A stretch of DNA of 54,140 nt, from positions 1-54,140 of the forward strand of contig JANMNF010000071.1 in assembly GCA_031373765.1 (NCBI GenBank). The letters are read 5' to 3'. The notes below the pieces were generated by a model. It was not told where the DNA came from, made no database searches, and saw only the letters and a program-made list of their open reading frames with translations. Below, one piece after another: positions 15,116 through 50,291 of this stretch (its first letter is position 1; each line of letters begins with the position of its first letter). Made by a program: the position numbers and the translations under genes. This DNA is from Chloroflexota bacterium (GTDB lineage: Bacteria > Chloroflexota > Limnocylindria > Limnocylindrales > CSP1-4).

Positions 15116-15170
15116 TTGACGCGACAACTGGGCACGTGCTAGGTTACTGCAATCGGTTGCGCACGGTCAA
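15116..15170. promoter_or_regulatory. Bidirectional promoter with LacI-type operator (site D)
   Basis: Plus strand: TTGACG (15116-15121), 18 nt, TAGGTT (15140-15145), then operator CTGCAATCGGTTGCGCA (15147-15163). Minus strand: TTGACC (15170-15165), 18 nt that are the operator itself, then TAACCT (15146-15141). Confidence 0.65.
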
Positions 15171-15214
15171 TCACGCACGACCGAGTCCCAGGTTGGGTAC
15201 GCGGAGACGACACA

Positions 15215-16636
15215 TTGCGGATGCTCATCGCGGGTGAGTGGACAGACGGTGCTATCCGTGAAGACGTCACGAATCCGTTCAACGGCGACGTGATCGACAC
15301 GGTGCCGGTTGCGTCGCGGGCGGACGTTGATCGCGCGCTCGCAGCCGCGGTAGGGGCGGCCGACCGCCAGCGCCATACCGCAGCCTACGACCGTCAGGCG
15401 ATCCTGCTCCGCGCGGCCGACCTCGCGGACGAGCGGGTTGAGGATCTGGCTCGAACGATCTCGCTCGAGTCGGGAAAGCTCCTGACCGAGGCGACCGGCG
15501 AAGCCTCCCGGGCCGGCGACATGCTTCGTCTGGCTGCGTTCGAGGGCGCTCAGCTCTACGGCGACAGCCTCCCGCTCGACGCACACCGCGGCGCCGGGCA
15601 GGGTCGACTTGGTTTCACGCTCAGGCAGCCGTGTGGGGTGGTCGTCGCGATCACGCCATTCAACTACCCCTCGTTACTCGTCTTGCACAAGATCGCGCCT
15701 GCACTGGCCGCGGGTAACGCGGTCATCCTCAAGCCCGCGCGCAAGACGCCTCTGACGGCGCTCAAGCTTGCCGAGATTCTTCTCGACGCCGGCCTCGATC
15801 CCGAGGCGATCTCCTGTGTAACGGGCTCAGGAGCCGAACTCGGTGCGCAACTGTGTAGCGATCCGCGCGTGCGGAAGATCAGTTTCACCGGCAACTCGGC
15901 AACCGGCCAGGCGATCACCCGGGTTGCCGGAGTGAAGCGCCTGTCCCTGGAGCTCGGGGCCAGTTGTCCCGTCATCGTCCTGCCGGATGCCGACCTCGAA
16001 CTTGCCGCCAGGGCGGTCTCCATTGGCGGCTACGTGAACGCCGGTCAGGTCTGCATTTCGGTCCAGCGAGTCCTCGTCGACCGGACGGTCATGAGTGACT
16101 TCCTTGATGCGCTGACGCCGCTCGTCAAGGCGATCCGTACCGGTGATCCCCTCGATCCCCAGACGACGGTCGGCGTCCTGGTCAGCGATGTCGAGGCGCG
16201 GCGGGTGGAGCAGGCGATCAACGCGAGTGCCGCGGCCGGGTCGCGCGTGTTGGTTGGTGGCGAGCGCGAAGGAACGATGCTCCGGCCAGCCGTCGTGGCA
16301 GACGTCGATCCGGCGAGCCCATTCAGCCGCGACGAGCTATTCGGACCGGCCGTGGCCGTCTCACCGGCATCGGGAATGGACGACGCCATCCGACTTGCCA
16401 ACGACAGCCCGTACGGCCTCGGTGCCGGCGTCTTCACTCGAGACGTGACAAGCGCGCTGCGCTTCGCGCGGGAAGTGGACGCAGGTATGGTGCACATCAA
16501 CTGGACTCCGCTTTGGCGGGCCGATCTGATGCCGTACGGCGGCCTCAAGAACAGCGGAATCGGCAAGGAAGGCGCGCGCTCGGCGGTCGAGGAGATGACG
16601 GAGTCAAAGACGATCATCCTTCATGGAGCGAGCTGA
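15215..16636 (+). CDS. NAD(P)-dependent aldehyde dehydrogenase
   Basis: ALDH family: FNYPSLLVLHKIAPALAAGNAV, SFTGNSATG, catalytic LELGASCP and NAGQVCISVQR. The true start may be ATG 15221. Confidence 0.85.
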   Translation: MRMLIAGEWTDGAIREDVTNPFNGDVIDTVPVASRADVDRALAAAVGAADRQRHTAAYDRQAILLRAADLADERVEDLARTISLESGKLLTEATGEASRAGDMLRLAAFEGAQLYGDSLPLDAHRGAGQGRLGFTLRQPCGVVVAITPFNYPSLLVLHKIAPALAAGNAVILKPARKTPLTALKLAEILLDAGLDPEAISCVTGSGAELGAQLCSDPRVRKISFTGNSATGQAITRVAGVKRLSLELGASCPVIVLPDADLELAARAVSIGGYVNAGQVCISVQRVLVDRTVMSDFLDALTPLVKAIRTGDPLDPQTTVGVLVSDVEARRVEQAINASAAAGSRVLVGGEREGTMLRPAVVADVDPASPFSRDELFGPAVAVSPASGMDDAIRLANDSPYGLGAGVFTRDVTSALRFAREVDAGMVHINWTPLWRADLMPYGGLKNSGIGKEGARSAVEEMTESKTIILHGAS

Positions 16637-16654
16637 CAGGAGGGTCCCCAACCC

Positions 16655-18553
16655 ATGCCCTCGACGGTCCGATTGACGACCGCGCAGGCGATCATTCGAT
16701 ACCTCGGCCGGCAGCACACCGTCGCGGACGGCGAGCGGGCGCGCTCCGTGCCGGCAATGCTCGGCATCTTCGGCCACGGCAACGTCGCCGGGCTCGGCCA
16801 GGCCCTCGATGAGTTCCGGGCAGAGATGCCATATGTTCAGGGCCGCAACGAGCAGTCTCTGGTCCACGTTGCGACCGCGTTTGCCAAGGCATCGCGCCGG
16901 CGGGCCGTGCTCGCCGTCACCGCGTCCGTCGGGCCGGGCGCCACGAACATGGTCACGGGTGCGGCGCTTGCCACGATCAACCGCCTGCCGGTGCTCCTGC
17001 TGCCCGGCGACACTTACGCCACTCGCCGCCAGGGTCCGGTACTCCAGCAGCTGGAGCACCCGTCCGCAGGCGACATCTCCGTGAACGACTGCTTCCGACC
17101 GGTGGCTCGCTACTTCGACCGGATCACGCGCCCGGAGCAGGTCCTTACGGCTCTGCCCGAAGCGATGCGAGTCTTGACAAACCCGTCCGAAATGGGTGCC
17201 GTGGTCATCGCCCTGCCGCAGGATATCCAATCAGAGGCGTACGACTATCCCGCAGCGTTCTTCGCGCCTGCCGACTGGGTCATCGCGCGCCCAGCTCCGG
17301 ATCTCGAGGCCGTGGCCGCGGTGGCTCACCTACTCGCCGAGGCCCATCGCCCGCTGATCGTGGCCGGAGGGGGCGTCCACTACTCCGAGGCTGGGGAGGC
17401 GCTGGCAGGGCTTGCGGGGGAGTTCGGGATCCCTGTTACCGAGACGTTTGCCGGCAAGGGCGCTGTGGAGACCGATGCCTGGTGGGGCATGGGTGGCATT
17501 GGCGTGGAGGGAAATCCGGCGGCAAACAAGCTCGCCGCCGAGGCCGATCTCGTCCTTCACGTGGGCACGCGCCTGACGGACTTCACGACTGCCTCCCAGT
17601 CCATCTTCGCGGATCCTGCGGTCCGATTCGCCTCCATCAACGTGACCGACCATGACGCGCGCAAGCAAGGTGCCCTGCCAATCGTCGCCGACGCTCGTCG
17701 GGCGCTGCTGGCGCTCGTTACCGCGGCACGGGATGCGGGTGTCCGGCCACGGCCCACGTGGGAGGCACGCGCTCGGGAAGTCAAGTCTGCCTGGCTGCCG
17801 ACGCGAGCTGTGGCCCTCGCCGCCCCGGGGCCGGACCGGTTCGGCGGGGAAAGCCTAATGACGCAGGGCCAGCTGATTGGGATCCTCCAGGATGCGGCCC
17901 GGCCGGGTGACACGATCGTCGCTGCCGCTGGCGGACCCCCCGGCGACTTGCTCAAGGTCTGGGACGCGACCGGCGGCAGGTCGTGCCACCTCGAGTTCGG
18001 GTATTCGTGCATGGGCTATGAGCTTCCGGCGACCCTCGGGGTACGCCTTGCCCAGCCCGACGGCGCGGTGATGGCGCTGATTGGCGACGGGACGTTCCTC
18101 ATGCAGCCGACCGAACTGGTCACTGCCCTGCAGGAAGGTCTGAACGTGACGGTGGTGGTCTCGGAGAACCACGGCTTCCAGGTCATCCGGCGTCTTCAGT
18201 TGATGCGCAATGGCGCGGGATTCGGGAACGAGTTCCGCGGACGAACCGGGCCGCTCGCGACTGGCGCGCTGGATGGCCCATACCTCGATCTCGACCTCGT
18301 TGCCCTGGCTGCCGGGCTTGGGGCACGGGCCACCAGGGCCGGAACGCCGGACGCTATCCGTACCGCTCTGGAAGAGGCCCGGTCCCACCCCGGTCCGAGC
18401 GTCATCGTCGTCGCGACGGATCCCGACGTGAACTTGCCGTCCTCGGGCGTGTGGTGGGATGTCGCTTCGGCCGAAGTGTCGGACGTGACGGCCGTGGCGG
18501 AGCGACGACGCGAATACGAGGCAGGGCTCGCCAGTCAGCGATGGCATGGCTGA
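16655..18553 (+). CDS. iolD: IolD paralog 1: ThDP-dependent 3D-(3,5/4)-trihydroxycyclohexane-1,2-dione acylhydrolase
   Basis: VRLTTAQAIIRYL...IFGHGNVAGLGQAL...GPGATNMVTGAA...IGDGTFLM. The length (632 aa) and N-terminus are typical of IolD. Confidence 0.85.
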   Translation: MPSTVRLTTAQAIIRYLGRQHTVADGERARSVPAMLGIFGHGNVAGLGQALDEFRAEMPYVQGRNEQSLVHVATAFAKASRRRAVLAVTASVGPGATNMVTGAALATINRLPVLLLPGDTYATRRQGPVLQQLEHPSAGDISVNDCFRPVARYFDRITRPEQVLTALPEAMRVLTNPSEMGAVVIALPQDIQSEAYDYPAAFFAPADWVIARPAPDLEAVAAVAHLLAEAHRPLIVAGGGVHYSEAGEALAGLAGEFGIPVTETFAGKGAVETDAWWGMGGIGVEGNPAANKLAAEADLVLHVGTRLTDFTTASQSIFADPAVRFASINVTDHDARKQGALPIVADARRALLALVTAARDAGVRPRPTWEARAREVKSAWLPTRAVALAAPGPDRFGGESLMTQGQLIGILQDAARPGDTIVAAAGGPPGDLLKVWDATGGRSCHLEFGYSCMGYELPATLGVRLAQPDGAVMALIGDGTFLMQPTELVTALQEGLNVTVVVSENHGFQVIRRLQLMRNGAGFGNEFRGRTGPLATGALDGPYLDLDLVALAAGLGARATRAGTPDAIRTALEEARSHPGPSVIVVATDPDVNLPSSGVWWDVASAEVSDVTAVAERRREYEAGLASQRWHG

Positions 18554-19524
18554 TGACTGAGCGTGGGCCCATCCTGGCGCTCGGTCCGATCGATGACGTC
18601 GTGGTGGACCATCTCCGCCCCTTCGGTGATGTCATCGAAGTGGGCGCAGGCGACGTGTCAATAGCCGACCTCCTGCCGATGGCCATCGGCCTGATCGCAC
18701 GCGGTAGCAGCGTTGTCGACCGTCAGGTCATCACCGCCGCAGGAAACCTGCGCGTTATTGGAAGGAGCGGGATCGGGGTCGATCTCGTCGATCTCGCAAG
18801 CGCGAGCGAGCGGCGTATCCCCGTGGTCGTGACGCCGAACGCCGGCACGAACGCCGTGGCGGAGGGGGCGCTGGCGCTCATCCTGCACCTCGTCAAGAGG
18901 CTCGGGCCGCTCACCGAGCTGGTTCGCGAGGGTCGCTGGGCCGAGCGTGAATCGGTCGACGTAGGCGATCTTGAGGGTGCGACGCTCGGGATCGTCGGCT
19001 TTGGCCGGATCGGGCGGCGGCTCGCTGAGCTGGGCGGTGCTCTCAACATGAGCGTCGTGGCATTTGACCCGTATGCGGATCCGCTCACGGCATCTGGGTT
19101 GGGCGTCGATCTGGTCGACCTCGATCGACTTGCCGAGACCGCCGACGTAATCAGCCTCCACGCCCCTCTTACCGCCGAGACGACGCACCTCATCGATGCC
19201 GCCGTCCTGGATCGGGTTCGTAGTGGCACCGTTCTCGTCAACTGTGGGCGCGGTGGCTTGCTGGATCTGGACGCAGTCCATGCGGCGCTGCTTGATGGGC
19301 GCCTGGCCGGGGTGGGTCTCGATGTCTTCGAACCGGAGCCTCCGCCGCCCGGCGGGCATCCGATCTTCCAGCACCCAGCCGTGGTCCTCACGCCCCACGT
19401 ACTCGGCCTGTCCCGACGGGCCAAACGCCGGATATTCCAGGAAATGACCGACGGAATGGCGTCCGTCCTCGCCGGCGGACGCGCCATGAACATCGCCAAT
19501 CCGGAGATCTACGACGAGGCCTGA
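18541..19524 (+). CDS. D-isomer-specific 2-hydroxyacid dehydrogenase
   Basis: GIVGFGRIGRRLA Rossmann motif, RIPVVVTPNAGTNAVAE, NCGRGGLLD, TPHVLG. The start is ATG 18541 or ATG 18553 (the latter overlaps the iolD stop). Confidence 0.8.
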   Translation: MAWLMTERGPILALGPIDDVVVDHLRPFGDVIEVGAGDVSIADLLPMAIGLIARGSSVVDRQVITAAGNLRVIGRSGIGVDLVDLASASERRIPVVVTPNAGTNAVAEGALALILHLVKRLGPLTELVREGRWAERESVDVGDLEGATLGIVGFGRIGRRLAELGGALNMSVVAFDPYADPLTASGLGVDLVDLDRLAETADVISLHAPLTAETTHLIDAAVLDRVRSGTVLVNCGRGGLLDLDAVHAALLDGRLAGVGLDVFEPEPPPPGGHPIFQHPAVVLTPHVLGLSRRAKRRIFQEMTDGMASVLAGGRAMNIANPEIYDEA

Positions 19525-19553: not shown

Positions 19554-20558
19554 TCAGGGCGTGATGATGATCTTGGTGGCCTGACCTGATCGTAGCTGTG
19601 CGACCCCATCGAGGACCTCGCTCAGGGGCAACACGGCCGACACGATTGGTGCGAGGTTGAGGGTGCCGCTCTCCACGAGGCGAATGGCGGCCGGAAACGT
19701 GAAGTTCGAGATGTAAGAGCCGAGAATTGACAGCCCCTTCTCGGTGATCTCGACCTGATGGATCGGCGGACGCGCCGCTCCGTTCATCCCGAACACGATA
19801 ATCCGCCCGCCCATCCCGGCGGCCTCGATAGCGGGACCGAGGACGCTCCCAACGGCATCGACCACAATGTCGGCGCCACCGGGCAGGATTTCATGGCGCC
19901 GGGCGGCGAATTCGTCCGGCGTGAAGGTGAAGTCCGCCGCGACGGCTTTCGCAACGGCGGCCCTGACAGCGTTCGGCTCGATCACGATGACCGGCCCGGC
20001 GCCCGAGGCTTTGAACACCGCCGCGAACAGACACCCGATCGTGCCGGCACCGATGACGACCACGGATTCTCCTGGTCTGGCGGCCGCTCGATTTGTCCCG
20101 TTCACTACACACGCAAGCGGCTCCACGAGAGCCGCCATCTCGAGTGGTACGTCCTCTGATATCGGGTAGACGGCCGCCGCGGGCGCAATCACGAATTCGG
20201 CAAATGCACCATCCCTGTAGACTCCGAGCGCGCGGATGTTTTCGCAGTTGGCAGGCCGGCCGGCGCGACAGGATGTGCAGGCATTGCACTTCGGATCCGG
20301 GTCGACGACGACGCGCTGACCGACACCGACGCTCGTCGCCGCCTCGCCGACAGCGGTGACGCGGCCCACGAACTCGTGCCCGAGGATTGTGCCTGGCGTC
20401 GCCGGATGACCCGGAGGGACATTGAGGATCTGGAGGTCACTCCCGCACATCCCGCACGCCTCGATGGCGATGAGGACATCATCCGCCTGCTCGACTTGCG
20501 GGCTCGGGCGGTCCTCGAGGCGCAGTTCGCCGTTACCGTGAAAGACGGCGGCACGCAT
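19554..20558 (-). CDS. Zinc-dependent medium-chain alcohol/polyol dehydrogenase
   Basis: ATG at 20558. CGMCGSDL, GHEFVGRV and the structural-Zn cysteines CNACTSCRAG, plus VIGAGTIG Rossmann motif. 334 aa. Confidence 0.85.
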   Translation of the reverse strand: MRAAVFHGNGELRLEDRPSPQVEQADDVLIAIEACGMCGSDLQILNVPPGHPATPGTILGHEFVGRVTAVGEAATSVGVGQRVVVDPDPKCNACTSCRAGRPANCENIRALGVYRDGAFAEFVIAPAAAVYPISEDVPLEMAALVEPLACVVNGTNRAAARPGESVVVIGAGTIGCLFAAVFKASGAGPVIVIEPNAVRAAVAKAVAADFTFTPDEFAARRHEILPGGADIVVDAVGSVLGPAIEAAGMGGRIIVFGMNGAARPPIHQVEITEKGLSILGSYISNFTFPAAIRLVESGTLNLAPIVSAVLPLSEVLDGVAQLRSGQATKIIITP

Positions 20559-21418
20559 CACGTTCCCCTTCGTTTCATCAGACGTCGACCGACTCGCAGG
20601 ACGAGACCGGAGCCAAAGAGCAGGGCGACTGTCGAGAGGAGCAGCACCGTCGCGACGGCGTTCACCTCGGGTGTGACCCCAAACTTGATCTGCGTATAGA
20701 TATACAACGGGAGCGTGACCTGTGGTCCAACGGTAAAGAACGTAATGATGAACTCGTCGATCGAGAGCGTCACGCTGATGAGAGCGCCGGCCACGATCGC
20801 GGGCGAGATGAGCGGCAGGATCACGTGGCGCAACGCCTGGCGCGGGCTGGCTCCGAGGTCGGCCGCCGCCCACTCGAGGCGGTGATCGAAGCCCTGGAGC
20901 CGCGCGGCGACGATCAGGACCACGAACGGCGTCGTGAATACGAGGTGGCCGGCAATCACCGTCAGGAGCGACAGCTCGAGGTCCAGAACCCGACGGAAGA
21001 AGATGAGCATCGCGATGCCCAGGAGGATCCCGGGCAGCATGATCGGCATCGTCGCCAGGATACGGACAGCGTCGGGGTGGCGGATTCCGCCACGGACCAG
21101 AGGGAACGCGGCCATCGTTCCGATCAGGGTCGCCAGGAATGCGACGGCTGCAGCGACGATGATCGAGTTCTTGACCGCCTCGAGCAGCAAGCTGTTGCCT
21201 GCCGCTACTTCGTACCAATGCAAGGTGAGATTGACGATCGGGAGACCTGGGGTGCGCGGCTCGTTGAATGAGAACAGGACGAGGAAGGCGATCGGCACGT
21301 AAAGGAAGACGAGCACGGCGACCGCCCAGAGCCAGAGGACCCAGCGCGTGGGCCGGGCATACGGGCTGACGGGCATCGTCTCCAGCGGATCGATCTGCTT
21401 ACCCACGAGCCACGACAT
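20558..21418 (-). CDS. ABC transporter permease (PotC-like)
   Basis: Six TM segments. EAA-type loop WAAADLGASPRQALRHVILP. Alternative start at 21376. Confidence 0.8.
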   Translation of the reverse strand: MSWLVGKQIDPLETMPVSPYARPTRWVLWLWAVAVLVFLYVPIAFLVLFSFNEPRTPGLPIVNLTLHWYEVAAGNSLLLEAVKNSIIVAAAVAFLATLIGTMAAFPLVRGGIRHPDAVRILATMPIMLPGILLGIAMLIFFRRVLDLELSLLTVIAGHLVFTTPFVVLIVAARLQGFDHRLEWAAADLGASPRQALRHVILPLISPAIVAGALISVTLSIDEFIITFFTVGPQVTLPLYIYTQIKFGVTPEVNAVATVLLLSTVALLFGSGLVLRVGRRLMKRRGT

Positions 21419-22319
21419 CCTCTAGCCGGAGGTACTTGCGGAAGACGACCAGGAGAGCCGTGACGAACACGGCGATGATGATCGCGAACGCCGCACCTTG
21501 AGCGATCTGCGCGCCCCGGAAGAAGTTCACCACCAGATTCGCGATGAGGGAGCCCTGTACGCCGCCTACAAGCGTTGGCGTCAGGAACTCACCCAGAATC
21601 GGGATGAACATGAAAATGCAGGCGGTGATGATCCCGGAGCGAATCTGCGGCACGAGGATGTGCCTAAATGCCTGATCAGGCCGCGCGCCGAGGTCCTGGG
21701 CGGCGTGCAACTGGCTGAAGTCGAACTTCTCGAGCGCTGCGTAGAGTGCCAGCGCGGCGAATGGGAAGTAGACGTAGACAAGAACGATGAACACCCCGAC
21801 GTCGTTGTAGACGAACAGGCGCGACGGTTCGTCGAGGATGCCGACTGCCTGGAGGGCCTGGTTGAGCGCGCCCCGCTCTCCAAGAATCGCCTGCCACGCA
21901 TAGACACGCAGGAGATAGCTCGTCCAGAAGGGCACGATGACCGCGAGCAGGACCAATCGCTGCCGCCGGCGGCTGACGTACCGGACGAGGAAGTAGGTGA
22001 ACGGCACCGCCGCGCCCAGGCCGGCGGCCGTCACCGCCGTTGCCATGAGCATCGTCTTGATGAACGTTCGAATGTAGGTCGGGACGGTGAAGAACTTCAG
22101 GTAGTTATTGAGGTTCCATTCCGGAACCAGATTGAAATCGACGTCGGTTCGCCAGAAGCTGAAGACGACCATGAACGCCATCGGCGCGATGAACAGGAGG
22201 AACAGCGCGATCGCGCCCGGGATGGCGGGTGCGATCCGTCCAAAAGAGCGCGATGGTGCCGCCGATCCGGGCTGGACCAGCGGCACCTCGTTCAGGCTGA
22301 CGCCTGAGGTCTGGTTCAT
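21399..22319 (-). CDS. ABC transporter permease (PotB-like)
   Basis: EAA-type loop HAAQDLGARPDQAFRHILVPQ. Six TM segments. Confidence 0.8.
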   Translation of the reverse strand: MNQTSGVSLNEVPLVQPGSAAPSRSFGRIAPAIPGAIALFLLFIAPMAFMVVFSFWRTDVDFNLVPEWNLNNYLKFFTVPTYIRTFIKTMLMATAVTAAGLGAAVPFTYFLVRYVSRRRQRLVLLAVIVPFWTSYLLRVYAWQAILGERGALNQALQAVGILDEPSRLFVYNDVGVFIVLVYVYFPFAALALYAALEKFDFSQLHAAQDLGARPDQAFRHILVPQIRSGIITACIFMFIPILGEFLTPTLVGGVQGSLIANLVVNFFRGAQIAQGAAFAIIIAVFVTALLVVFRKYLRLEDVVARG

Positions 22320-22345
22320 GGGTGAGGCCGGTTCCCTGACTTCGG

Positions 22346-23464
22346 TCAGGCTCCGAACACCTCGTTGAACGCGTCGATGGCGCCCTGCGTCGATGACCCA
22401 GGGCCCTTGAGGGTCATGGTGTTGACCGTCTCGGGCTTGTTGTAGAGGAACCGGTCAGCGCGGTCCTTCTGGCCCTTGTCCACGAGCAGCTTGTAAGCGG
22501 CCTCGTTGAACAGCGGCCGGCCATACCGGATGAAGTTCTCGGCAATGTGCTCGGCCTGCTCGGCAACTTCCAGGAACGGCTTGAGCAAACTGTTGTTCTT
22601 GCCGCCCTTGACCAGCATCTCCGCGTCCATCCAGCCGACGGTCCCCTCCTTCGGGGTGAAGCCGATGATCTCGGGTCCGCCACCCTCCTTGACCCTTTCC
22701 TCGGCTCCCAGGTTACCGGTCGCGATCCACGCCTCTTCGTTGATCAACGACGTGATGGTCTCCGTGTTCTGTTGGGTCAGTTTGAGGAGGTTCGGCTTGA
22801 GGAGCGTGAGCATCTCCTTTGCCTGCGCAAGCTCCTCATCGGTCATGTTGTAGGGATCCTTGGCGCCGGCGAACTTGGCCATGTAGGCGACAATCTCGAC
22901 CGGCTGGTTCTCGACAACGATATGACCCTTGTACTTGGGGTCGAGCAGCACCTCCCACGAGTCGGGCGGCGTCGTGACGTACTTCGGGTTGTAGTAGAGC
23001 TGGACCGGGGACCAGCCGAACGGATAGCCCAGGTAGCCCTCGGGCTTCTTCCAGATCGAGAAATCGCGCGCGATCGAGTAGAGCTGCTTCGCGACCTGGA
23101 GCTCGTTGATGTCCCAGGCTTCGATGAGACCGTCCTCGAAGTACTTCGGCACCCACAGCGCATCGCCGGAGATCATGTCGAGCTGTCCGCCGACTTCCTT
23201 GACTTTCGTGTAGCCCTCGGAGTTGTCGGCAAGCTCGGTGATGCTCGTCTTGAGCTCCTGGTCCTTGGCGATCGCGGCGAGCTGTTCGTCGTAGTAGTGA
23301 TCGCTCCAGGTCATCCAGTTGAACGTGCCCTTGGTGCTCCCGCCACCGCCGCCGGTAGTACAGGCAGCGGCCAGGCCCCCAAAGGCCACTACGCCACCCA
23401 TGGCTGCCGACGCCTGCAAGAAGCGACGCCGGGATAGATTGTTGTACCTCGCCATTTGATCCAT
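22346..23464 (-). CDS. Periplasmic/lipoprotein substrate-binding protein of a Pot-type (polyamine-like) ABC importer
   Basis: ATG at 23464. Twin-arginine-like LSRRRFLQ followed by lipobox LAAC. The body resembles PotD/PotF-family binding proteins. Confidence 0.75.
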   Translation of the reverse strand: MDQMARYNNLSRRRFLQASAAMGGVVAFGGLAAACTTGGGGGSTKGTFNWMTWSDHYYDEQLAAIAKDQELKTSITELADNSEGYTKVKEVGGQLDMISGDALWVPKYFEDGLIEAWDINELQVAKQLYSIARDFSIWKKPEGYLGYPFGWSPVQLYYNPKYVTTPPDSWEVLLDPKYKGHIVVENQPVEIVAYMAKFAGAKDPYNMTDEELAQAKEMLTLLKPNLLKLTQQNTETITSLINEEAWIATGNLGAEERVKEGGGPEIIGFTPKEGTVGWMDAEMLVKGGKNNSLLKPFLEVAEQAEHIAENFIRYGRPLFNEAAYKLLVDKGQKDRADRFLYNKPETVNTMTLKGPGSSTQGAIDAFNEVFGA

Positions 23465-23466
23465 CG

Positions 23467-25624: not shown

Positions 25625-25641
25625 GGGTTCGCTTCATCCGC

Positions 25642-26895: not shown

Positions 26896-26944
26896 TGCGC
26901 AACCGATTGCAGGGACGGTAGCATCCGGACCAGACGGGCGTCAA
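26896..26944 (-). promoter_or_regulatory. Internal promoter with LacI-type operator (site A) upstream of the aminotransferase gene
   Basis: Minus strand: TTGACG (26944-26939), 18 nt, TACCGT (26920-26915), 2 nt, then operator CTGCAATCGGTTGCGCA (26912-26896). The ATG follows at 26874. Confidence 0.6.
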
Positions 26945-27855: not shown

Positions 27856-28799
27856 GCCGACCTCCTCGTCGTCGTGTCCTGGAGCTCGAGTCTGGCTCTG
27901 TCCGCGATTCGGGCCGCCGTGAGCCCGTGCTTCTCGAGCAGGAATTCATTGGGAGCCGATTCGCCCCAGCAATCCTCAAGTCCGATCCGGACGAGGCGCC
28001 TGGGCAGATGGGCTGTCAGGATTTCGGCGATCAGACCACCAAGGCCGCCGATGACCGAGTGTTCCTCCACGCTCACCACGAGGCTCGAAGGGTCGATGGC
28101 CGCGACGATCGTCTCGACATCGACGGGCTTGATCGAGGGGACATGGAGGACGCCGGCAGACACGCCGGAGGACTCCAGGATGACGGCAGCCTCCAGGCAA
28201 CGCGACGTCTGTGGGCCGGTCGATATCAGCAATACGTCCGTCCCTTCCCGGAGTTGATAAACACGGCCCGGTTCAAACCGATACGTGCTGTCGAACAACT
28301 CGGGCGCCGGGTCCCGCGTCAATCGAAGGTAGACGGGACCATCGAAGTCGGTTGCCCAGCGGGTCATCGCCGCGCACTCGACCTCATCGGCCGGTGCGAG
28401 GACCGTGAGCCCGGGCATCGCCCGCATGATCGCCAGGTCCTGAATGTCCTGATGCGTCTTCCCGGTGAGCCCGGTCAACAACCCTCCATAGCCGGCACCG
28501 ACCTTGACGTTGGCATGCGGCTGCGCCACGAGCAGACGGATCTGGTCGAGCGCGCGATGGGTCAGGAAGACCGCGAACGACGACAGCCAGGGGACATAGC
28601 CCATCGACGCCAGCCCGGCCGCTACTCCGACCATGTTCTGCTCGGCTATCCCCATCTGGAGGAAGCGCTCGGGATGCCGTCGGGCGAAGATGTCCGCCTT
28701 GGTCGACGTGGCAAGGTCTCCGTCGAGCACGAGGATGTCCGAATTCGTATCGCCGAGCTCAGTGAGCGTCTCGCCCCAGACCTCGCGCTGCGATCTCAC
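27852..28799 (-). CDS. Transketolase, C-terminal (pyrimidine-binding) subunit
   Basis: GTG 28799 overlaps the upstream stop (GTGA). FLQMGIAEQNMVGVAAGLA...GKTHQDIQDLAIMRAMPG. 315 aa. Confidence 0.85.
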   Translation of the reverse strand: MRSQREVWGETLTELGDTNSDILVLDGDLATSTKADIFARRHPERFLQMGIAEQNMVGVAAGLASMGYVPWLSSFAVFLTHRALDQIRLLVAQPHANVKVGAGYGGLLTGLTGKTHQDIQDLAIMRAMPGLTVLAPADEVECAAMTRWATDFDGPVYLRLTRDPAPELFDSTYRFEPGRVYQLREGTDVLLISTGPQTSRCLEAAVILESSGVSAGVLHVPSIKPVDVETIVAAIDPSSLVVSVEEHSVIGGLGGLIAEILTAHLPRRLVRIGLEDCWGESAPNEFLLEKHGLTAARIADRARLELQDTTTRRSA

Positions 28800-29689
28800 T
28801 CGGGGCCGCCTGGGGCATCGATGTCCAGCTCGAGGCGGGCAGCCTCCAACTCGTCGGAGGTCGGGACGCGAGCGTGCCAACCATGCTGACCCTCGGTGAA
28901 GGACAGGCCTCGCCCCTTGATCGTCCGTGCCAAAATCGCCGTCGGCCGACTGTCCGGGGTCGCCTCGGCCGCCGCTGCGCACGCGCCGATGATGGCGCCG
29001 AAATCGTGGCCGTCGATTTCGATCACCCGCCAGCCGGATCCCTCGAACATGGCGCGCAGCATGCCTCCAGGGAATGGCTCACTGCGGTCACCGCGAGCAC
29101 CGGGCTCGTCCTGGAGCGACCAGCCGAATTGTTGGAGGCCGTTGTCATCGACGATCACAATCAGGTGGCCCAGTCGATAGCGAGCAGCCACAAGCGCTGA
29201 CTCCCAGACCATTCCCTCCTGACACTCGCCGTCACCAAGCATCACGTAGGTGTGGAAGTCACGACCTCGGAGCCGTGCCCCGAGTGCGATCCCGACCCCC
29301 ACCGCAAGGCCCTGCCCGAGCGATCCGGTGGACGCGTCGAGTCCCGGCAGGCGGGTCATGTCCGGATGGCCCTGCAGCCGCGAGTCACCTTTGTCGAACG
29401 TGGCTAGCTCCTCAATCGGGAAATAGCCGCGTTGAGCCATCACCGCGTACAGACCCACGGCCGAGTGGCCTTTCGACAGGATGAACCGGTCGCGGTCGGC
29501 CCAATCGGGATCCTCGGCGCGGATTTCCAGCACCCGGAAGTACAGAGCGACCAGCAACTCCATCGCCGACATCGGCCCGCCGACATGGCCGGCCCCACTT
29601 CCGGTCACCGTACGCATCACGAGCCAGCGACCCAGTCGCGCCCGAGCCTCGAGGTCGGCGTGCGGAGAGGGCTCGCTCGCCTTCGTCAC
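28796..29689 (-). CDS. Transketolase, N-terminal (ThDP-binding) subunit
   Basis: GTG 29689 overlaps the iolD stop (GTGA). GHVGGPMSAMEL...SKGHSAVGLYA...GSLGQGL...LGDGECQEGMVWE. 297 aa. Confidence 0.85.
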   Translation of the reverse strand: MTKASEPSPHADLEARARLGRWLVMRTVTGSGAGHVGGPMSAMELLVALYFRVLEIRAEDPDWADRDRFILSKGHSAVGLYAVMAQRGYFPIEELATFDKGDSRLQGHPDMTRLPGLDASTGSLGQGLAVGVGIALGARLRGRDFHTYVMLGDGECQEGMVWESALVAARYRLGHLIVIVDDNGLQQFGWSLQDEPGARGDRSEPFPGGMLRAMFEGSGWRVIEIDGHDFGAIIGACAAAAEATPDSRPTAILARTIKGRGLSFTEGQHGWHARVPTSDELEAARLELDIDAPGGPE

Positions 29690-31566
29690 CCGAGTCGCTG
29701 CCGGGAACGTGCCTGGTCGTACCCGTCGCGCGCCGCCCGGATCCCCGGCTGGGCGCTCACCTCGGCTGCGGGAACGTCCCACCATCCCTCGAAGCCGGGA
29801 ACGCGCTGCTCCGGATCGACAGGCACGACGATGACCGTGACTCGATCGGCCCGTTCGGCCTCGGCGAGCGCGGCATGCAATTCGGCAGCCGTGCGGGCGA
29901 AGATGGCCAGGGCGCCCATCGCCTCCGCGTGCTGCCGAAAGTCCACTGGCACGTACGGCCCTGTGAGGCGGTTGCGGGCCTTGTCGCGGAAGCGAAGGTC
30001 GTTCCCGAAGTCGGGCACGCCGACCGAGCGCGCGAGGCCCGTGATGCACCCGAATCCGTGGTTGTCGAGGAGGACGATGGTGAATTTCAGGCCCTCCGCG
30101 ACCGCTGTCACGATTTCCGAGTTCATCATCAGGTACGACCCGTCACCGACGATCACGGCCACCCGTCGCTCGGGTTCCGCAAACGCCACGCCGAGCCCTG
30201 CGGCGACCTCGTAACCCATGCATGAGTAGCCGTACTCCACGTGGTACGACTTCGGGTCCTCAGCGCGCCACAGTTTGAGTAGGTCACCGGGGAGGCTCCC
30301 GGCGGCGCAGATCACCGTGGCCTTGCCTCCGAGGGCGTCGTTGACGATGCCGATCACCTCGGCCTGACCGAGATCCGCGTCCTTCGGGCCTTCCGCCCGG
30401 AGGGCCGTCACGATGCCGTCCCACTCCACCTTGAGCTGCCCGATCCGCGCGCGGAATGCCTCGTTTGTGCCTCGATAGCCCGCGGCATCGAGTGCGGTCG
30501 AGAGTGCGGCGAGGGCCTCGCGCGCATCGGCGACAAGCGGGATCGCCCGCAGCTTGTGGGCGTCCATGGGCGTGACGTTGACCCCGACGAACTTGACGTC
30601 GGCGTGCTGGAACGTGGTTCTCGACGACGTGACAAAGTCGCCCATTCGGGTACCAACACACAGGACCAGATCTGCTTCGCGGGCAAGGTGATTCGCGGCC
30701 AGGCCCCCATTCGCGCCGATCGGACCCACCATCATCGGATGGTTCCAGGGCAGGGCGCCCTTCCCCGCCTGCGTCTCGGCAACCGGGATGTTGAACCGCG
30801 ACGCAAGGGCGTCGAGTTCATGGGTCGCCTCCGAGTAGATGGTGCCGCCACCGGTGATGATCACCGGCGTCTTCGCTCGCATCAGAAGCTGAACCACCTC
30901 GGCGACGACCGAAGGTTCCGGAACCGGCCTGCGAACCCTCCAGATCCGACGCTCGAAGAACGATTCGGGCCAGTCGAACGCCTCGCTCTGGACGTCCTCC
31001 GGCAGCGACACGGTCACGGCGCCGGTCTCTGCCGGGTCGGTCAGCACGCGGAATGCCTCGGGTAGGCTGGCGATCAGTTGGTCGGGACGTGAAATCCGGT
31101 CGAAGAACCGGGACACTGGCCGGAATGCGTCACTCGCGCTGACATCGTGCTCGCTTGGATGCTCGACCTGTTGCAGGACGGGATCCGAGGACCGGTTGGC
31201 GAAGTAGTCGCTCGGAAGGAGCAGGACGGGGACGCGGTTGACGGTCGCTGCAGCGGCGCCCGTGATCATGTTTGTGGCGCCGGGACCAATCGACGACGTG
31301 CAGGCGAAGGTCTGGAGACGGTTCCGATGGCGCGCGTACGCCGCAGCAATGTGGACCTGCCCCTGCTCGTTCTGGGGTCGGTAGTACGGCATCTCCTCCG
31401 CGTCGCCGAGCTCCTCGAGGGCCTGCCCGAGGCCGGCGACATTGCCGTGTCCGAAAATCCCCCAGACGCCGGCAATGAAGCGCTGTTGCCGGTCGTCACG
31501 CTCCACGTACTGCTTGGCCAGGAACCGGACGACGGCCTGGCCGGTGGTCAGTCGAACAGTCGTCAT
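29686..31566 (-). CDS. iolD: IolD paralog 2: ThDP-dependent trihydroxycyclohexane-1,2-dione acylhydrolase
   Basis: VRLTTGQAVVRFL...IFGHGNVAGLGQALEE...GPGATNMITGAA...VGDGSYLM. 626 aa. Confidence 0.85.
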   Translation of the reverse strand: MTTVRLTTGQAVVRFLAKQYVERDDRQQRFIAGVWGIFGHGNVAGLGQALEELGDAEEMPYYRPQNEQGQVHIAAAYARHRNRLQTFACTSSIGPGATNMITGAAAATVNRVPVLLLPSDYFANRSSDPVLQQVEHPSEHDVSASDAFRPVSRFFDRISRPDQLIASLPEAFRVLTDPAETGAVTVSLPEDVQSEAFDWPESFFERRIWRVRRPVPEPSVVAEVVQLLMRAKTPVIITGGGTIYSEATHELDALASRFNIPVAETQAGKGALPWNHPMMVGPIGANGGLAANHLAREADLVLCVGTRMGDFVTSSRTTFQHADVKFVGVNVTPMDAHKLRAIPLVADAREALAALSTALDAAGYRGTNEAFRARIGQLKVEWDGIVTALRAEGPKDADLGQAEVIGIVNDALGGKATVICAAGSLPGDLLKLWRAEDPKSYHVEYGYSCMGYEVAAGLGVAFAEPERRVAVIVGDGSYLMMNSEIVTAVAEGLKFTIVLLDNHGFGCITGLARSVGVPDFGNDLRFRDKARNRLTGPYVPVDFRQHAEAMGALAIFARTAAELHAALAEAERADRVTVIVVPVDPEQRVPGFEGWWDVPAAEVSAQPGIRAARDGYDQARSRQRLG

Positions 31567-32663
31567 CGAGTTCCTCCCCGCAACGTGTCTGGATTCGGAA
31601 GCATCACATCGTCCACCGTTCTGACCAGATCCCAGTACGAGGCGATGAACCCGCGAAGCGTACGGACCGTCGCGCCATACGAATCGAACTCATTCGGGGC
31701 GAGCCCGTCCTCGTCATAGGCGCGCCGGAAGTCGGGAAGCCGGTCAAGAAGTTCATCGACGAGTCGAAGGTCGACAGGTTCGTCAAAGCGCGGCCGGACC
31801 TCGACACGCGACCCATTGAAGCGACGCTGCCAAACCGGCGGAATCGTCAGGATGATGTCGCCTCCGATCACCTCGGACCAGTGAAGATGGTGGCGATACG
31901 CCGCGGCCAGGAGGCGGGTCCGATACCCGCGCGCTCGATAGATCGGCGCCGCCTTCTTGAGAACAGCGATGCCAGCACGGTCGAGGGCGCCGGGGTCGAC
32001 GATGATGTTGTCCCGCTCGGCAACGACCTTCATCCAGTCGTCGAGCCTGCCAACCATCAGCGTGCAAACAGGGCTCATCGTGCTGACGTCGTGGCCGGCT
32101 GCGACACGTCGACGGAGCCCCGCTTCAACGGCTTCGCCGACGGCGAGGGCTTGACTGAGGGTGAAGCTGACGGTCGCGTTGATCGAGACGCCCGCGGCCG
32201 TGGCTTCCTCGATCGCCGTGATCCCCGCTAGCGTCGCCGGGAACTTGACCTGCATGTTCGGAGCCAATTTCTGGAACCGAAGGCCCTGCTCCAGCATGCG
32301 CTCAGCAGACCCGTGGAAGGTCGGATTGGTCTGAATCGATAGGCGGCCTTTGAGGCCGCGCTCACGATCGAAAATCGGCTCCAGCAGTGCCGCGGCACCC
32401 GCTGCCATCGTTTCGATCAACCACCAGGCGATCTCGACGTCGGTCGCGGACCGTTTGGCCGCCTGGAGGGCCAGGATCCTCGGATGCCAGACGTCCCACT
32501 CGCTACGTAGGACTTCGCCCACGATGGTCGGATTGGACGTCGCGCCGACGCCACCATGGTCGATCGCGTACTTCAGATCCGCCAGAGAACACGAGTCGTT
32601 CCAGAAGTCGGTCGGTGTCGTGCGCACCATTCGGGCAAGCGGGCTTTCCGTGCTCACATCCAT
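31563..32663 (-). CDS. Transaldolase-family protein
   Basis: ATG 32663 is preceded by GGAGGGG. GATSNPTI, RLSIQTNP, and VKFPAT with the Schiff-base lysine. 366 aa, the long actinobacterial type. Confidence 0.8.
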   Translation of the reverse strand: MDVSTESPLARMVRTTPTDFWNDSCSLADLKYAIDHGGVGATSNPTIVGEVLRSEWDVWHPRILALQAAKRSATDVEIAWWLIETMAAGAAALLEPIFDRERGLKGRLSIQTNPTFHGSAERMLEQGLRFQKLAPNMQVKFPATLAGITAIEEATAAGVSINATVSFTLSQALAVGEAVEAGLRRRVAAGHDVSTMSPVCTLMVGRLDDWMKVVAERDNIIVDPGALDRAGIAVLKKAAPIYRARGYRTRLLAAAYRHHLHWSEVIGGDIILTIPPVWQRRFNGSRVEVRPRFDEPVDLRLVDELLDRLPDFRRAYDEDGLAPNEFDSYGATVRTLRGFIASYWDLVRTVDDVMLPNPDTLRGGTR

Positions 32664-32706: not shown

Positions 32707-32755
32707 TTGCGCAACCGATTGCAGAACGGTAGCATCGGCCAAAGGCGCACGTCAA
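32707..32755. promoter_or_regulatory. Bidirectional promoter with LacI-type operator (site B)
   Basis: Plus strand: TTGCGC (32707-32712), 17 nt, TAGCAT (32730-32735). Minus strand: TTGACG (32755-32750), 18 nt, TACCGT (32731-32726). The operator TGCGCAACCGATTGCAG lies at 32708-32724. The two -10 boxes overlap by 2 bp (ACGGTAGCAT). Confidence 0.65.
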
Positions 32756-32798: not shown

Positions 32799-34004
32799 AT
32801 GGAGACCCGCGGTCGCCTCCCGGATCTCCGGATCGCGATGATTGGCGCCGGGACGATGGCTCGAGCTCACAGCGCGGCCCTGTCCAATATCGGATCGCTC
32901 TATCCGGCGCTCAGGGCCAGGGTGCGGCTCGTGGTTGTCGCGGACGTCAACGCATCACTGGCCGCCGACCTGGGTGCCCGCTACGGCTATGAGCGGGTGG
33001 AGCCGAACTGGCAAGTCGCCGTGTCGGCGGCCGACGTGGATCTGGTCGTCGCCTGCTTGCCGCCGATCCTGAACCGTCCGGTCATCTTGGCGGCGGCCGC
33101 CGCCGGCAAGCACATCGTGTCCGAGAAGCCGCTGGCCGAGACGGCCGAGATTGCGGCGGAACTCCTTGCCGCCTGCCAGGCCGCGGGCGTGTTCCACGGC
33201 CTCGGACTTGGTTATCGCTGGTCGCCGGCGGTCCGCGCGATCCGAGAATTGATCGCCCGTGGCGATCTCGGCGAGATCCGCAGCATGCGCGGGTCGTTCA
33301 TGCTCGACTACGGTTCGGACCCTGACGTGCCTCTCGTCTGGCGATTCCGGCGGGAACTGTCCGGCGGCGGCCTGGCCATCGACACGGGCTACCACCTCGT
33401 TGACTGCGGCCGGTTCCTGGTCGGGGAGATCGAGTCGGTCCAGGCTCTGACGTCAACGTTCATCGCCGAGCGACCGCTGCCCGGATCCGATGCGATCGGA
33501 AACACCGGGGGCCCCGGCAAGGACTCAGCCGAGCGGACGATGGGGACCGTTGACGTCGAGGATGCCGCAGCCGCGATCGTCAGCTACGCAGGTGGGGCCT
33601 ACGGCGTGCTCGAAACCAGCCGCGTCGCCATCGGCAAGCGCGTCTCGCTCCAATTGGAGGTCTTCGGGTCACTTGGATCCGCTGATTGGGATCTCGAGCG
33701 GCCCGATGAATTCCGGGTCTGTTTGCCTGGGGACCCGGGGACCTTTGGTTATCGGCGAGTCCTGGTCAACCCGGGTCATCCTGGGGCGGCCGCGCTGCTG
33801 ATTGGCGGCGCGGACGGCACGTCGATCGGGTGGCTCGGACAGGAGTGCGCCATGTGGGCTGAGTATGTCGCCGCGATCTGTGAGGGCCGCCGTGGGCGTG
33901 CCGACTTCGACGACGGTGTCCGAGTCAACGCGGTGATCGATGCGCTCTATGCGTCGGCAGCGAGTGGCGTTCGTACGCCGGTGGTTCTGCCGTCCGGGTT
34001 CTGA
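32799..34004 (+). CDS. Gfo/Idh/MocA-family oxidoreductase
   Basis: IAMIGAGTMARAH Rossmann motif and HIVSEKPLA. 401 aa. Confidence 0.8.
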   Translation: METRGRLPDLRIAMIGAGTMARAHSAALSNIGSLYPALRARVRLVVVADVNASLAADLGARYGYERVEPNWQVAVSAADVDLVVACLPPILNRPVILAAAAAGKHIVSEKPLAETAEIAAELLAACQAAGVFHGLGLGYRWSPAVRAIRELIARGDLGEIRSMRGSFMLDYGSDPDVPLVWRFRRELSGGGLAIDTGYHLVDCGRFLVGEIESVQALTSTFIAERPLPGSDAIGNTGGPGKDSAERTMGTVDVEDAAAAIVSYAGGAYGVLETSRVAIGKRVSLQLEVFGSLGSADWDLERPDEFRVCLPGDPGTFGYRRVLVNPGHPGAAALLIGGADGTSIGWLGQECAMWAEYVAAICEGRRGRADFDDGVRVNAVIDALYASAASGVRTPVVLPSGF

Positions 34005-34030: not shown

Positions 34031-34972
34031 TCAGGCGCGGAGAAGAGGCCTCATGAATGCGGCGCCGAGCTCCACACCCTCCTGCGGAGTGACGCTGGCA
34101 TCCTCGTTCTCGATCGCCAACGCATCGTCGTAGCCGACCTCGCGCAGGGTTGCAACAAAGGCCGCCCAGAAGGCACGACCGTGGACGCTGCCGACCGTCC
34201 GGAAGACCCAGGCTCGATGGGCCGCATCCTCGAACGGGCGCTGGTCCAGGACACCGGCCAGGGCGATTTGGTCGGCAATCACCTCGGTGTCCTTCAGATG
34301 GACGTGATGGACGGCCGGGCCCAGGGCGCGGATGACCGCGAGTGGGTCCATCTGCTGCCAGAACAGATGCGACGGATCCACGTTGGCGCCGATGATGGGC
34401 CCGATCGCGTCTCGCATGCGGAGCAGCGTCGGGACGTTGTAGACGAGGTGCAAGGGGTGCAGCTCGAATGCGATCTGCTCGACGCCATGGGCCTTGGCAT
34501 CGAGCGCAAGGTCCCGCCACAGTTCCAGGGCCTGGTCCCACTGCCGGTCCAGCAACGCCACGGCGTCGGACGGCCACGGGTACCACGCGAAGTTGACGGT
34601 CGTCGCGGCCGGGCCGTCGCCGGGGCTTCCGGACATGGACACGATCTTCGTCACTCCGAGTTCGCCGGCCAGCCTGAATGTGGCCCGGATGAGGGCCACG
34701 TGATCCGGTCCGTACACCGGATGCATGGGCCAAGCTGAGCAATTCAGGGCTGCGGTCCGTAGTCCGCGATCCGCGAACGCTCGGGCGAACGCTGCTCGCC
34801 TGTTTGGATCCCCGAGTAACTCGTCGATCCGAAGATGTGGTGCGGACGACTGCCCGCCGGTGGCAATCTCAATACCGGTTGCGCCGACCCGCTCGGCCAG
34901 ATCAAGGGCTGCCTCGAACGTTTCGTCCTTGACTGAATCCGTGTACAGCCCAAGTTCCACCGAGCACCTCAC
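34031..34972 (-). CDS. Sugar phosphate isomerase/epimerase (xylose-isomerase-like TIM barrel)
   Basis: GIEIATGG...FELHPLHLVYN...ANVDPSHLFWQ...HVHLKD...LAIENED metal-ligand pattern. Confidence 0.75.
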   Translation of the reverse strand: MRCSVELGLYTDSVKDETFEAALDLAERVGATGIEIATGGQSSAPHLRIDELLGDPNRRAAFARAFADRGLRTAALNCSAWPMHPVYGPDHVALIRATFRLAGELGVTKIVSMSGSPGDGPAATTVNFAWYPWPSDAVALLDRQWDQALELWRDLALDAKAHGVEQIAFELHPLHLVYNVPTLLRMRDAIGPIIGANVDPSHLFWQQMDPLAVIRALGPAVHHVHLKDTEVIADQIALAGVLDQRPFEDAAHRAWVFRTVGSVHGRAFWAAFVATLREVGYDDALAIENEDASVTPQEGVELGAAFMRPLLRA

Positions 34973-34999: not shown

Positions 35000-35048
35000 T
35001 GTGCATTCGGTTGCATGGACGCTAGCATTGTCCCAGGAACGACGTCAA
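35000..35048. promoter_or_regulatory. Bidirectional promoter with a degenerate LacI-type operator (site E)
   Basis: Operator variant TGTGCATTCGGTTGCAT (35000-35016). Minus strand: TTGACG (35048-35043), 18 nt, TAGCGT (35024-35019). Plus strand: TAGCAT (35023-35028). The overlapping -10 layout is the same as at site B (ACGCTAGCAT). Confidence 0.5.
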
Positions 35049-35073
35049 CGCAGGCTGTCGGAGGGGCAGGACC

Positions 35074-36132
35074 GTGGGTGGAGCGACTCCGATTGGTGTC
35101 GGCTTGGTTGGTTATGGCCTCGCCGGGCGGTTCTTTCATGGCCCATTCATTGATGCCTGCGACGGGCTGGAGTTGCGCGCCATAGTCACGTCCGATCCGG
35201 ATCGAGCCGGGCACGCTGCGCGCGAGCATCCGGCGGCTCGGGTCGTTGGAAATCTTGACGAAGTCCTGGCCCGCAGCGACGTGGATCTCATCGTTGTCGC
35301 AGCGCCAAACCGGTTCCATGCGCCTATGGCCATGCGTGCGCTTGGGGCGGGAAGGCACGTGGTCGTCGATAAGCCCATGGCGATGGATGTCGCGGAGGCC
35401 GAGTCGTTGATAGCCGCGGCCGCCGCAGCCGGCCGGCTCCTGTCCGTATTCCAGAACCGGCGCTGGGACGGCGACTTCCTGACCATTCGCGGCCTCATTG
35501 ACGATGGCGCACTCGGCCCAATCGACAGCTTCGAATCTCGATTCGAACGGTGGAGCCCGGTCGCGGACGAATGGCGCGAAACAGCTGCTGAGGCAGCGGG
35601 GCCGCTGCGTGACCTGGGCGCCCATCTCGTTGATCAGAGCCGCGTCCTGTTCGGGCCGGTCCGCCGGGTCTGGGCCCAGACGGATTGCCGTCGCCCCGGG
35701 ACGCAGGTGGAGGACTCGATCTTCGTCGCTCTCGACCACACGAATGGCGTCAGATCACGCCTGTGGATGTCCATGATTGCGGCCGGGACCGGACCGCGAA
35801 TGCGCCTCCGGGGTCTCAACGGTGAATACATCAAGCACGGTCTGGATGTCCAGGAGCCGCAACTGGTGGGAGGGATGCTCCCGACGGCTGCTCATTTCGG
35901 CGAGGAGCCACGTGATGGGTGGGGGACGCTGTTCCAGGGCGGCGGATCGCCGAGGGTAGTCCCCTCCCGGCCGGGTCAGTACGGCCGGTTCTACGAGTTG
36001 CTCAGGGATGCCATTCGGGACGATGGCGAGCCACCCGTCGAACCCTTGGACTCGATGCGCGTGCTGGGCATCCTCGATGCAGCGTCGCGCGCGGCCGCGA
36101 CCGGTGTGGCCGAGGTCCTCGCGGACGGGTAG
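35074..36132 (+). CDS. Gfo/Idh/MocA-family oxidoreductase
   Basis: GVGLVGYGLAGRFFH Rossmann motif and HVVVDKPMA. 352 aa. Confidence 0.8.
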   Translation: MGGATPIGVGLVGYGLAGRFFHGPFIDACDGLELRAIVTSDPDRAGHAAREHPAARVVGNLDEVLARSDVDLIVVAAPNRFHAPMAMRALGAGRHVVVDKPMAMDVAEAESLIAAAAAAGRLLSVFQNRRWDGDFLTIRGLIDDGALGPIDSFESRFERWSPVADEWRETAAEAAGPLRDLGAHLVDQSRVLFGPVRRVWAQTDCRRPGTQVEDSIFVALDHTNGVRSRLWMSMIAAGTGPRMRLRGLNGEYIKHGLDVQEPQLVGGMLPTAAHFGEEPRDGWGTLFQGGGSPRVVPSRPGQYGRFYELLRDAIRDDGEPPVEPLDSMRVLGILDAASRAAATGVAEVLADG

Positions 36133-36155
36133 CAACAGGCGCCGTTTCCCTCCAC

Positions 36156-36184
36156 TTGCGCAACCGATTGCAGGGCGGTAGGAT
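36156..36184 (+). promoter_or_regulatory. Promoter with LacI-type operator (site C)
   Basis: TTGCGC (36156-36161), 17 nt, TAGGAT (36179-36184). Operator TGCGCAACCGATTGCAG at 36157-36173. GGAG (36208-36211) lies 8 nt before GTG 36220. Confidence 0.6.
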
Positions 36185-50286: not shown

Positions 50287-50291
50287 CCGCC

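Follow-up and report, generated by a model that had tools for sequence, protein, structure and literature searches.

In this study we describe a probable LacI-family regulon in a 54,140-nt stretch of DNA (hereafter the window) from an uncultured Chloroflexota bacterium of soil and sediment, in which one palindromic operator, present in four exact copies and one variant, stands in front of the operons of a gene cluster resembling those for inositol breakdown. Judged from the sequence, a single repressor very probably switches this 27-kb cluster on and off, and the LacI-family protein encoded within it (24557-25624, minus strand) in all likelihood binds the five predicted operators. We favour this protein as the reader because the sites are conserved, symmetric, placed in the gaps between genes and found together with a LacI orthologue, and because the LacI orthologues have kept their DNA-reading parts amid divergence of the remaining protein.

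Copies of the putative operator in the window

The exact 17-mer TGCGCAACCGATTGCAG occurs four times in the window, at 15147-15163 on the minus strand and at 26896-26912, 32708-32724 and 36157-36173 on the plus strand, and a scan of all 54,140 nt with up to three mismatches returned nothing beyond these four exact copies. Dinucleotide shuffles of the window (G+C 67%) gave a mean of 0.23 matches to the 17-mer, with four matches reached in none of 100 shuffles, and the palindromic core GCAANCGNTTGC was found four times in exact form against 0.06 expected. The variant operator TGTGCATTCGGTTGCAT (35000-35016, plus strand) differs from the 17-mer at five positions, one of them inside the core GCAA-N-CG-N-TTGC. 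A preliminary description of this DNA had reported the four exact copies and the variant, had seen no others and had placed every copy between genes; the scan and the shuffles bore out these counts, and the placement proved correct as well, since the five sites fill, one each, the five gaps of at least 85 nt in the region 14129-41742 (156, 138, 135, 101 and 87 nt), of which intergenic DNA makes up about 2.5%. LacI-family operators typically occupy promoter regions, usually 30-140 bp ahead of a start codon, and the window sites lie in such positions, 21-100 nt from the start codons of the flanking genes.

Copy 1 (15147-15163) is located between the divergent IolE-like gene and the operon for aldehyde dehydrogenase (ALDH), IolD1 and 2-hydroxyacid dehydrogenase. 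Copy 2 (26896-26912) lies in the 138-nt gap from the iolB stop codon to the aminotransferase ATG at 26874, and copy 3 (32708-32724) where the transaldolase operon and a Gfo/Idh/MocA gene diverge. The variant separates the TIM-barrel gene 34031-34972 from the Gfo/Idh/MocA gene 35074-36132, with which it forms another divergent pair; the same variant class occurs at the orthologous place of a related locus (L017:6755) and also at L016:6889. Copy 4 (36157-36173) precedes the operon of an 868-aa hydrolase and has its orthologue at L017:6594.

Two look-alikes were set aside because they lack the promoter cassette described below and because their number is within the chance expectation (1.8 matches per window for the core with at most one mismatch). 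The one at about 1301 has four mismatches, lies outside the cluster and is consistent with chance; the other, GTCGCAGCCGGTTGCGG at 5679-5695, about 135 nt upstream of fdhD, has five mismatches and is probably due to chance too.

Symmetry and classes of sites

Sixteen sites that had not been chosen by their motif give the symmetric consensus tGyGCAAnCGnTTGCrCa, centred on CG. Within them G4, C5 and A6, T12, T13 and G14 and the central C9 and G10 are invariant, positions 8 and 11 are free, and the pyrimidine at position 3 mirrors position 16, which is mostly a purine. An even palindrome of 16-22 bp with central CG is the norm for operators of the LacI family (PMC4052901), and the consensus of the 16 sites agrees with it. 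The LacI/GalR type named in the preliminary description is supported, as the sites are CG-centred palindromes, while the 17-nt length is not: the symmetric unit is 16-18 bp. Two-fold symmetry about CG points to a dimeric LacI-family reader and speaks against both a promoter element with a single reading direction and a hairpin in the RNA.

Two classes of sites recur, the exact type and a type beginning with TGTGCA. Relatives have the latter ahead of the transporter operon and of a second paralogue of the hydrolase; in the window and L017 it stands in front of the TIM-barrel gene. L103 and L118-L121 share type B, TGTGCAAmCGkTTGyAC, and the variant class of the window is seen again in L016 and L017.

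Conservation in other genomes

The exact 17-mer was scanned in a collection of species-representative genomes comprising 596 Gb, a procedure that biases the related loci to exact copies. At least 117 stretches carried it, roughly the number expected by chance in a collection of this size. Among the matches listed, to which the counts of this paragraph refer, about 90 are lone occurrences in unrelated phyla without shared flanks, and 25 copies belong to 23 loci in metagenome-assembled genomes of Chloroflexota (Candidatus Limnocylindrales, uncultured Chloroflexia or Chloroflexota; G+C 0.66-0.73). All 25 of these copies carry the full cassette and, according to tblastn, all 25 flank orthologues of window genes; if at least 11% of such copies lay outside the cluster, finding none in 25 would be unlikely. 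Among the arrangements at the 17-mer are IolD2 and the 868-aa hydrolase in divergent orientation, the aminotransferase-LacI-ABC operon next after IolB, the transaldolase, and LLM and TIM genes. A genome-wide dispersed repeat was the outcome that the preliminary description had named as fatal to its proposal; as far as the listed matches go, the unit does not look like one, every cassette-bearing copy among them sitting in an orthologous iol-like cluster.

A test independent of the motif offsets this bias. A search with the LacI protein yielded over 120 clusters with an identity of at least 55%, and four long contigs were picked by their LacI protein only (57-58% identity; 21-kb loci, 84 kb in total). 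All four hold the same kind of gene cluster, and the ten operator-like sites found in them all lie in intergenic promoter gaps. The exact core is present in eight of the ten, where about 0.1 would be expected in 84 kb, and three of the sites are directly upstream of lacI (L118, L119 and L121). The association of site and genes is therefore kept across the 23 loci selected by the motif, as far as the listed matches go, and the four selected by the protein. Together with the co-occurrence of the LacI orthologue, this conservation supports the earlier proposal that the sites unite the operons into what would be one regulon.

The LacI-family regulator

Pfam scans of all sizeable open reading frames identified 24557-25624 as the only LacI-family gene in the window; it comes second in the operon that follows operator copy 2. 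The protein has an N-terminal LacI helix-turn-helix (PF00356, 54.9 bits against a cut-off of 27, residues 14-58) and a C-terminal effector domain of the periplasmic-binding-protein type (PF13377, 118 bits; PF00532, 43.5 bits). It aligns over its full length with structures of CcpA, RbsR and PurR, CcpA being the closest (E 4e-34; 3oqm, 7e5w and 1rzr). Against the NCBIfam equivalogs no cut-off was reached, the best scores being those of RbsR (165.8 bits, cut-off 382) and ccpA (146.8 bits, cut-off 442).

In the LacI family a leucine of the hinge helix inserts into the central CpG (PMC3899939). The hinge of the regulator, YVPNAAARGLRARRT, aligns with YRPNAVARGLASKKT of CcpA with the leucine retained, and it is conserved in six orthologues. 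These are 50-80% identical overall, and their recognition helix VSRSTASRAL and hinge YVPNAAAR(G/S)L are almost unchanged.

In every locus examined lacI is located downstream of an operator, either behind the aminotransferase gene or with a site of its own directly upstream (L103, L118, L119 and L121), which makes autoregulation a conserved trait; 72% of LacI-family regulators are autoregulated (PMC4052901). The preliminary description had likewise deduced autoregulation from the position of the sole LacI gene inside a controlled operon, and both the Pfam scans and the placement in relatives agree with it.

The predicted promoter-plus-operator cassette

Alignment of the five window sites with those of relatives extended the conserved unit beyond the palindrome, to a cassette of TTGACG, 18 nt ending in (ga)TGm, TACCkT, 1-3 nt and CTGCAATCGGTTGCGCA, directly followed in many genomes by AGGAGG and a start codon. 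The preliminary description had taken the operator as the shared unit; the operator is indeed conserved, but the conserved unit is larger and corresponds to promoter plus operator. It had also called for phylogenetic footprinting, and in an alignment of 17 orthologous intergenic regions the relatives keep the operator and the promoter blocks as three invariant blocks, CTTGCGCAACCGATTGCA, GGTAkCATC and CGTCAA, the DNA in between being variable.

We infer from this pattern that the first strand of the cassette is a promoter, P1, made up of a -35 box and a TAnnnT -10 box extended by TG, with the operator lying across the start site, and that the opposite strand, TTGCGC-N17-TAKCAT, is a second promoter, P2, of which the operator would form the -35 box and the spacer. 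Wherever this side has a divergent gene, the T completing TTGCGC never changes; it varies at the sites behind the iolB stop codon, where there is no divergent gene.

At copy 1 the predicted P1 of the ALDH operon (15116-15145, plus strand) reads TTGACG-N18-TAGGTT, is conserved across genomes and has the operator beginning 1 nt past its -10 box; the putative P2 of the IolE-like gene (15141-15170, minus strand), TTGACC-N18-TAACCT, would have the operator as its spacer. Between the latter and the start codon of the IolE-like gene lies a perfect inverted repeat, GGTCACGT-TCC-ACGTGACC (15088-15106), a single exact copy in the window, which could be the site of a second regulator or a hairpin in the 5′ untranslated region (5′-UTR). 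For the aminotransferase-LacI-ABC transporter-alcohol dehydrogenase (ADH) operon behind copy 2 the candidate P1 is TTGACG-N18-TACCGT with TG upstream of the -10 box (26915-26944, minus strand), and orthologous cassettes are present in L039, L047, L053, L063, L069 and L071. Copy 3 would serve both the P1 of the transaldolase-IolD2-transketolase-IolB operon (32726-32755, minus strand; TTGACG-N18-TACCGT) and the P2 of the Gfo/Idh/MocA gene 32799-34004 (32707-32735, plus strand; TTGCGC-N17-TAGCAT), whose -35 box and spacer are the operator. The presumed P1 of the TIM-barrel gene 34031-34972 is found at 35019-35048 (minus strand; TTGACG-N18-TAGCGT), and that of the hydrolase-TIM-IolG-like-LLM operon is a P2 at 36156-36184 (plus strand; TTGCGC-N17-TAGGAT). 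Copy 4 is without TTGACG on the other strand, where there is no gene to drive, and the same holds for its L017 orthologue.

Proposed mechanism and alternative explanations

According to the mechanism that we propose, the functional unit would be the 16-18 bp palindrome given above, with one repressor dimer on each of the five sites. Its paired helix-turn-helix heads would recognise the GCAA/TTGC arms and its hinge-helix leucines would enter the central CpG, so that the bound dimer would cover about -5 to +13 of P1, including the transcription start. Where a gene diverges, the same operator would act as the -35 box (TTGCGC) and spacer of P2, whose -10 box (TAKCAT) overlaps that of P1 back to back, and one dimer would shut both directions. 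Five sites would in this way keep eight transcription units off until an inducer, probably a cyclitol or a catabolic intermediate, bound the sugar-binding domain and released the repressor, which would be autoregulated as its gene is within a controlled operon. Repression rather than activation is the mode that we presume.

A more specific version appears tentative to us. It would hold that this is an undescribed regulon of the Limnocylindrales type for a substituted, probably amino-bearing cyclitol; that the repressor senses that compound or an intermediate rather than myo-inositol; that the site is nearly invariant owing to a triple duty as repressor site, -35 box and opposite start region; and that one dimer gates two back-to-back promoters with overlapping -10 boxes. 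The aminotransferase, the polyamine-type importer and the hydrolase hint, speculatively, at such a substituted cyclitol.

Several points weigh against the assignment of the sites to the cluster LacI and against the promoters drawn around them. The invariance of the 17-mer in most related loci is partly a product of selection by the motif, only 16 sites being free of that bias. Elsewhere in the genome of the window there may be further targets beyond the cluster, or another LacI paralogue. A promoter scanner built on the E. coli consensus called no promoter at any site; its threshold is at least four of six matches to TATAAT, of which TACCGT has three, the conserved box being TAnnnT, and it is accordingly conservation that carries the promoter assignment. 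RNA-seq runs were searched for the window sequence and none matched. Finally, the operator also fits the cre consensus TGNAANCGNWNNCA, except for position 3 in the exact copies.

This last point, with CcpA as the closest structure, leads to the alternative that survives best, although we regard it as improbable: a different LacI-family protein from elsewhere in the genome, for example a global regulator of the CcpA kind, would bind the sites, and the cluster LacI would have another target or only a subset of them, the exact and variant types possibly belonging to two paralogues. That there are two operator classes, each conserved as a class (type B and the variant), would suit such a division. 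Against it, the cassette-bearing copies among the listed matches all sit in this cluster, the LacI orthologue invariably belongs to the cluster and has an operator in front of it, no second LacI gene is present in the window or the 21-kb loci, and the similarity to CcpA is at the family level only, as the ccpA score quoted above is far from its cut-off.

Even less probable is that the palindrome is no operator of the cluster LacI but a promoter feature, such as an initial transcribed or discriminator region or a sigma-factor element, spread by duplication of one cassette. The constant orientation of the 17-mer and its constant distance to the -10 box are what such a feature would produce, and the whole cassette of 39-50 nt is repeated rather than the palindrome alone. 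Symmetry about CG with free positions 8 and 11, however, fits a dimeric reader and not a one-way element, copy 4 and its L017 orthologue keep the palindrome though the -35 box of that strand is gone, and the spacers between the boxes differ from copy to copy, so that the copies are not recent duplicates. Action at the level of RNA is very improbable: a short stem-loop (5-bp stem, UCGG loop) that might affect translation or stability as a 5′-UTR hairpin can form, and at many loci the site is just upstream of the ribosome-binding site, but the predicted P1 start falls inside the left arm, the site would be untranscribed from the divergent promoter, and the would-be loop varies (AACCGATT, AATCGGTT, AAACGGTT, ATTCGGTT) as the spacer bases of LacI operators do. 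The cluster LacI thus remains the reader that we prefer.

Transcription units and gene content

Genes were called by the Pfam scans mentioned above and by NCBIfam scans, and eight transcription units were recognised within 14129-41742 (about 27.6 kb). Unit 1 (14129-15058, minus strand) is the IolE-like gene, a xylose-isomerase-like TIM barrel below the NCBIfam cut-off, and unit 2 (15215-19524, plus strand) comprises ALDH, IolD1 and the D-2-hydroxyacid dehydrogenase. Unit 3 (19554-26874, minus strand) contains a DegT-type aminotransferase, LacI, an ABC ATPase, a solute-binding protein, two permeases and an IolM-like Zn-ADH; unit 4 (27013-32663, minus strand) consists of transaldolase, IolD2, a split transketolase and IolB. 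They are followed by a Gfo/Idh/MocA oxidoreductase (unit 5, 32799-34004, plus strand), a xylose-isomerase-like TIM barrel (unit 6, 34031-34972, minus strand), another Gfo/Idh/MocA oxidoreductase (unit 7, 35074-36132, plus strand) and unit 8 (36220-41742, plus strand), with the 868-aa CehA/McbA-family metallohydrolase, a TIM barrel, an IolG-like dehydrogenase and an F420-type LLM oxidoreductase. An Rfam scan of the cluster for known RNA elements gave no match.

Operators precede true iol catabolic genes, as IolD1 and IolD2 (786 and 888 bits, cut-off 715) and IolB (238.8 bits, cut-off 205) exceed their NCBIfam equivalog cut-offs. The earlier statement that the sites precede iol-like genes is firm for these, and applies more loosely to the IolE-, IolG- and IolM-like genes, whose scores fall short of the cut-offs.

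The 868-aa protein (36220-38826) has no Pfam match; a CehA/McbA domain was recognised at residues 481-802 (NCBIfam, 140 bits, cut-off 80). It recurs as a constant part of the regulon, and the relatives L118, L119 and L121 have two paralogues, the second behind a type-B operator. A PfkB gene (IolC-type kinase) is part of the regulon in L023, L068, L097, L118, L119 and L121 and is absent from the window; a DeoC gene (IolJ-type aldolase), present also in L118, L119 and L121, is missing from the window too, which has transaldolase and split transketolase in their place. The lower half of the pathway therefore varies under the same operator. Upstream of a class-III aminotransferase gene in L002, a regulon member absent from the window, two operator-like sites, TGCGCAACCGATTGCGC and TGTGCCAACGGTTGCAT, stand side by side (3683-3747). 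At the cluster edge of L120 (20452-21143) there is a GntR/FCD regulator gene, divergent from a Gfo/Idh/MocA gene; in some genomes this regulator could add another, separate level of control.

Outside the cluster, a tRNA-Sec gene (48750-48842; Rfam, 72.8 bits) adjoins selA, selB and a selD-like gene (45242-52256). The frame of a molybdopterin oxidoreductase of the formate dehydrogenase type (12026-14128) is broken at 13687/13688, consistent with an in-frame selenocysteine codon. DNA sequencing runs that match the window are freshwater-sediment metagenomes.

Comparison with known regulons

Regulons of LacI-family IolR proteins were predicted by comparative genomics in seven orthologous groups, from Micrococcineae, Streptomycetaceae, Rhizobiales, Rhodobacterales, Oceanospirillales and others (Ravcheev et al. 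2014, PMC4052901). As there, we find what appears to be a local repressor, an even CG-centred palindrome before several operons of inositol utilisation, and autoregulation. The lineage is different, an uncultured Chloroflexota of the Limnocylindrales type, whereas the Chloroflexota of that study are five genomes of Chloroflexus, Roseiflexus and Herpetosiphon (PMC4052901). The gene set differs as well by the addition of the DegT aminotransferase, the CehA/McbA-type hydrolase, the split transketolase, the transaldolase and the F420-type oxidoreductase. We regard the case as a local regulon of the LacI-family IolR type in a new lineage and with an unusual gene set; the likeness is one of kind of system. 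A literature search on inositol regulation in this lineage found nothing relevant.

IpsA (Cg2910) of Corynebacterium glutamicum is also a LacI-type regulator with a palindromic site, in which the central bases are critical, and it is released by myo-inositol in vitro (PMC3899939). Unlike the role proposed for the cluster LacI, IpsA activates inositol synthesis (ino1) and cell-wall genes, and its targets are scattered round the genome.

IolR repressors of other families are known, of the DeoR type in Bacillus subtilis, the GntR type in C. glutamicum and the RpiR type in Salmonella and Sinorhizobium. They similarly hold off several iol operons, including divergent pairs, until an inositol-derived inducer appears, but belong to unrelated DNA-binding families with other operator architectures. 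CcpA and cre resemble the present system in fold, hinge leucine and operator pattern, while CcpA is a global regulator that requires HPr-Ser-P as co-repressor. In the E. coli bio operator one BirA site covers two divergent overlapping promoters, and the likeness lies in a single operator controlling two divergent promoters in the same short DNA; the repressor family is another one, and the bio promoters point towards each other instead of standing back to back with -10 boxes that overlap.

Conclusions

The sites provide a definition of a regulon at the sequence level in a bacterial class without a cultured, genetically tractable member. They would place in one co-regulated unit both IolD paralogues, the split transketolase, the transaldolase, the sugar-type aminotransferase, the large CehA/McbA-type metallohydrolase and the F420-type oxidoreductase, and this predicted grouping is the best hint at hand that these enzymes serve a single pathway. 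The repressor with its 50-bp bidirectional cassette makes a compact part that can be tested, and its inducer would name the substrate of the pathway. The regulation itself is conventional; it is the boundary of the regulon that gives a handle on uncharacterised enzymes.

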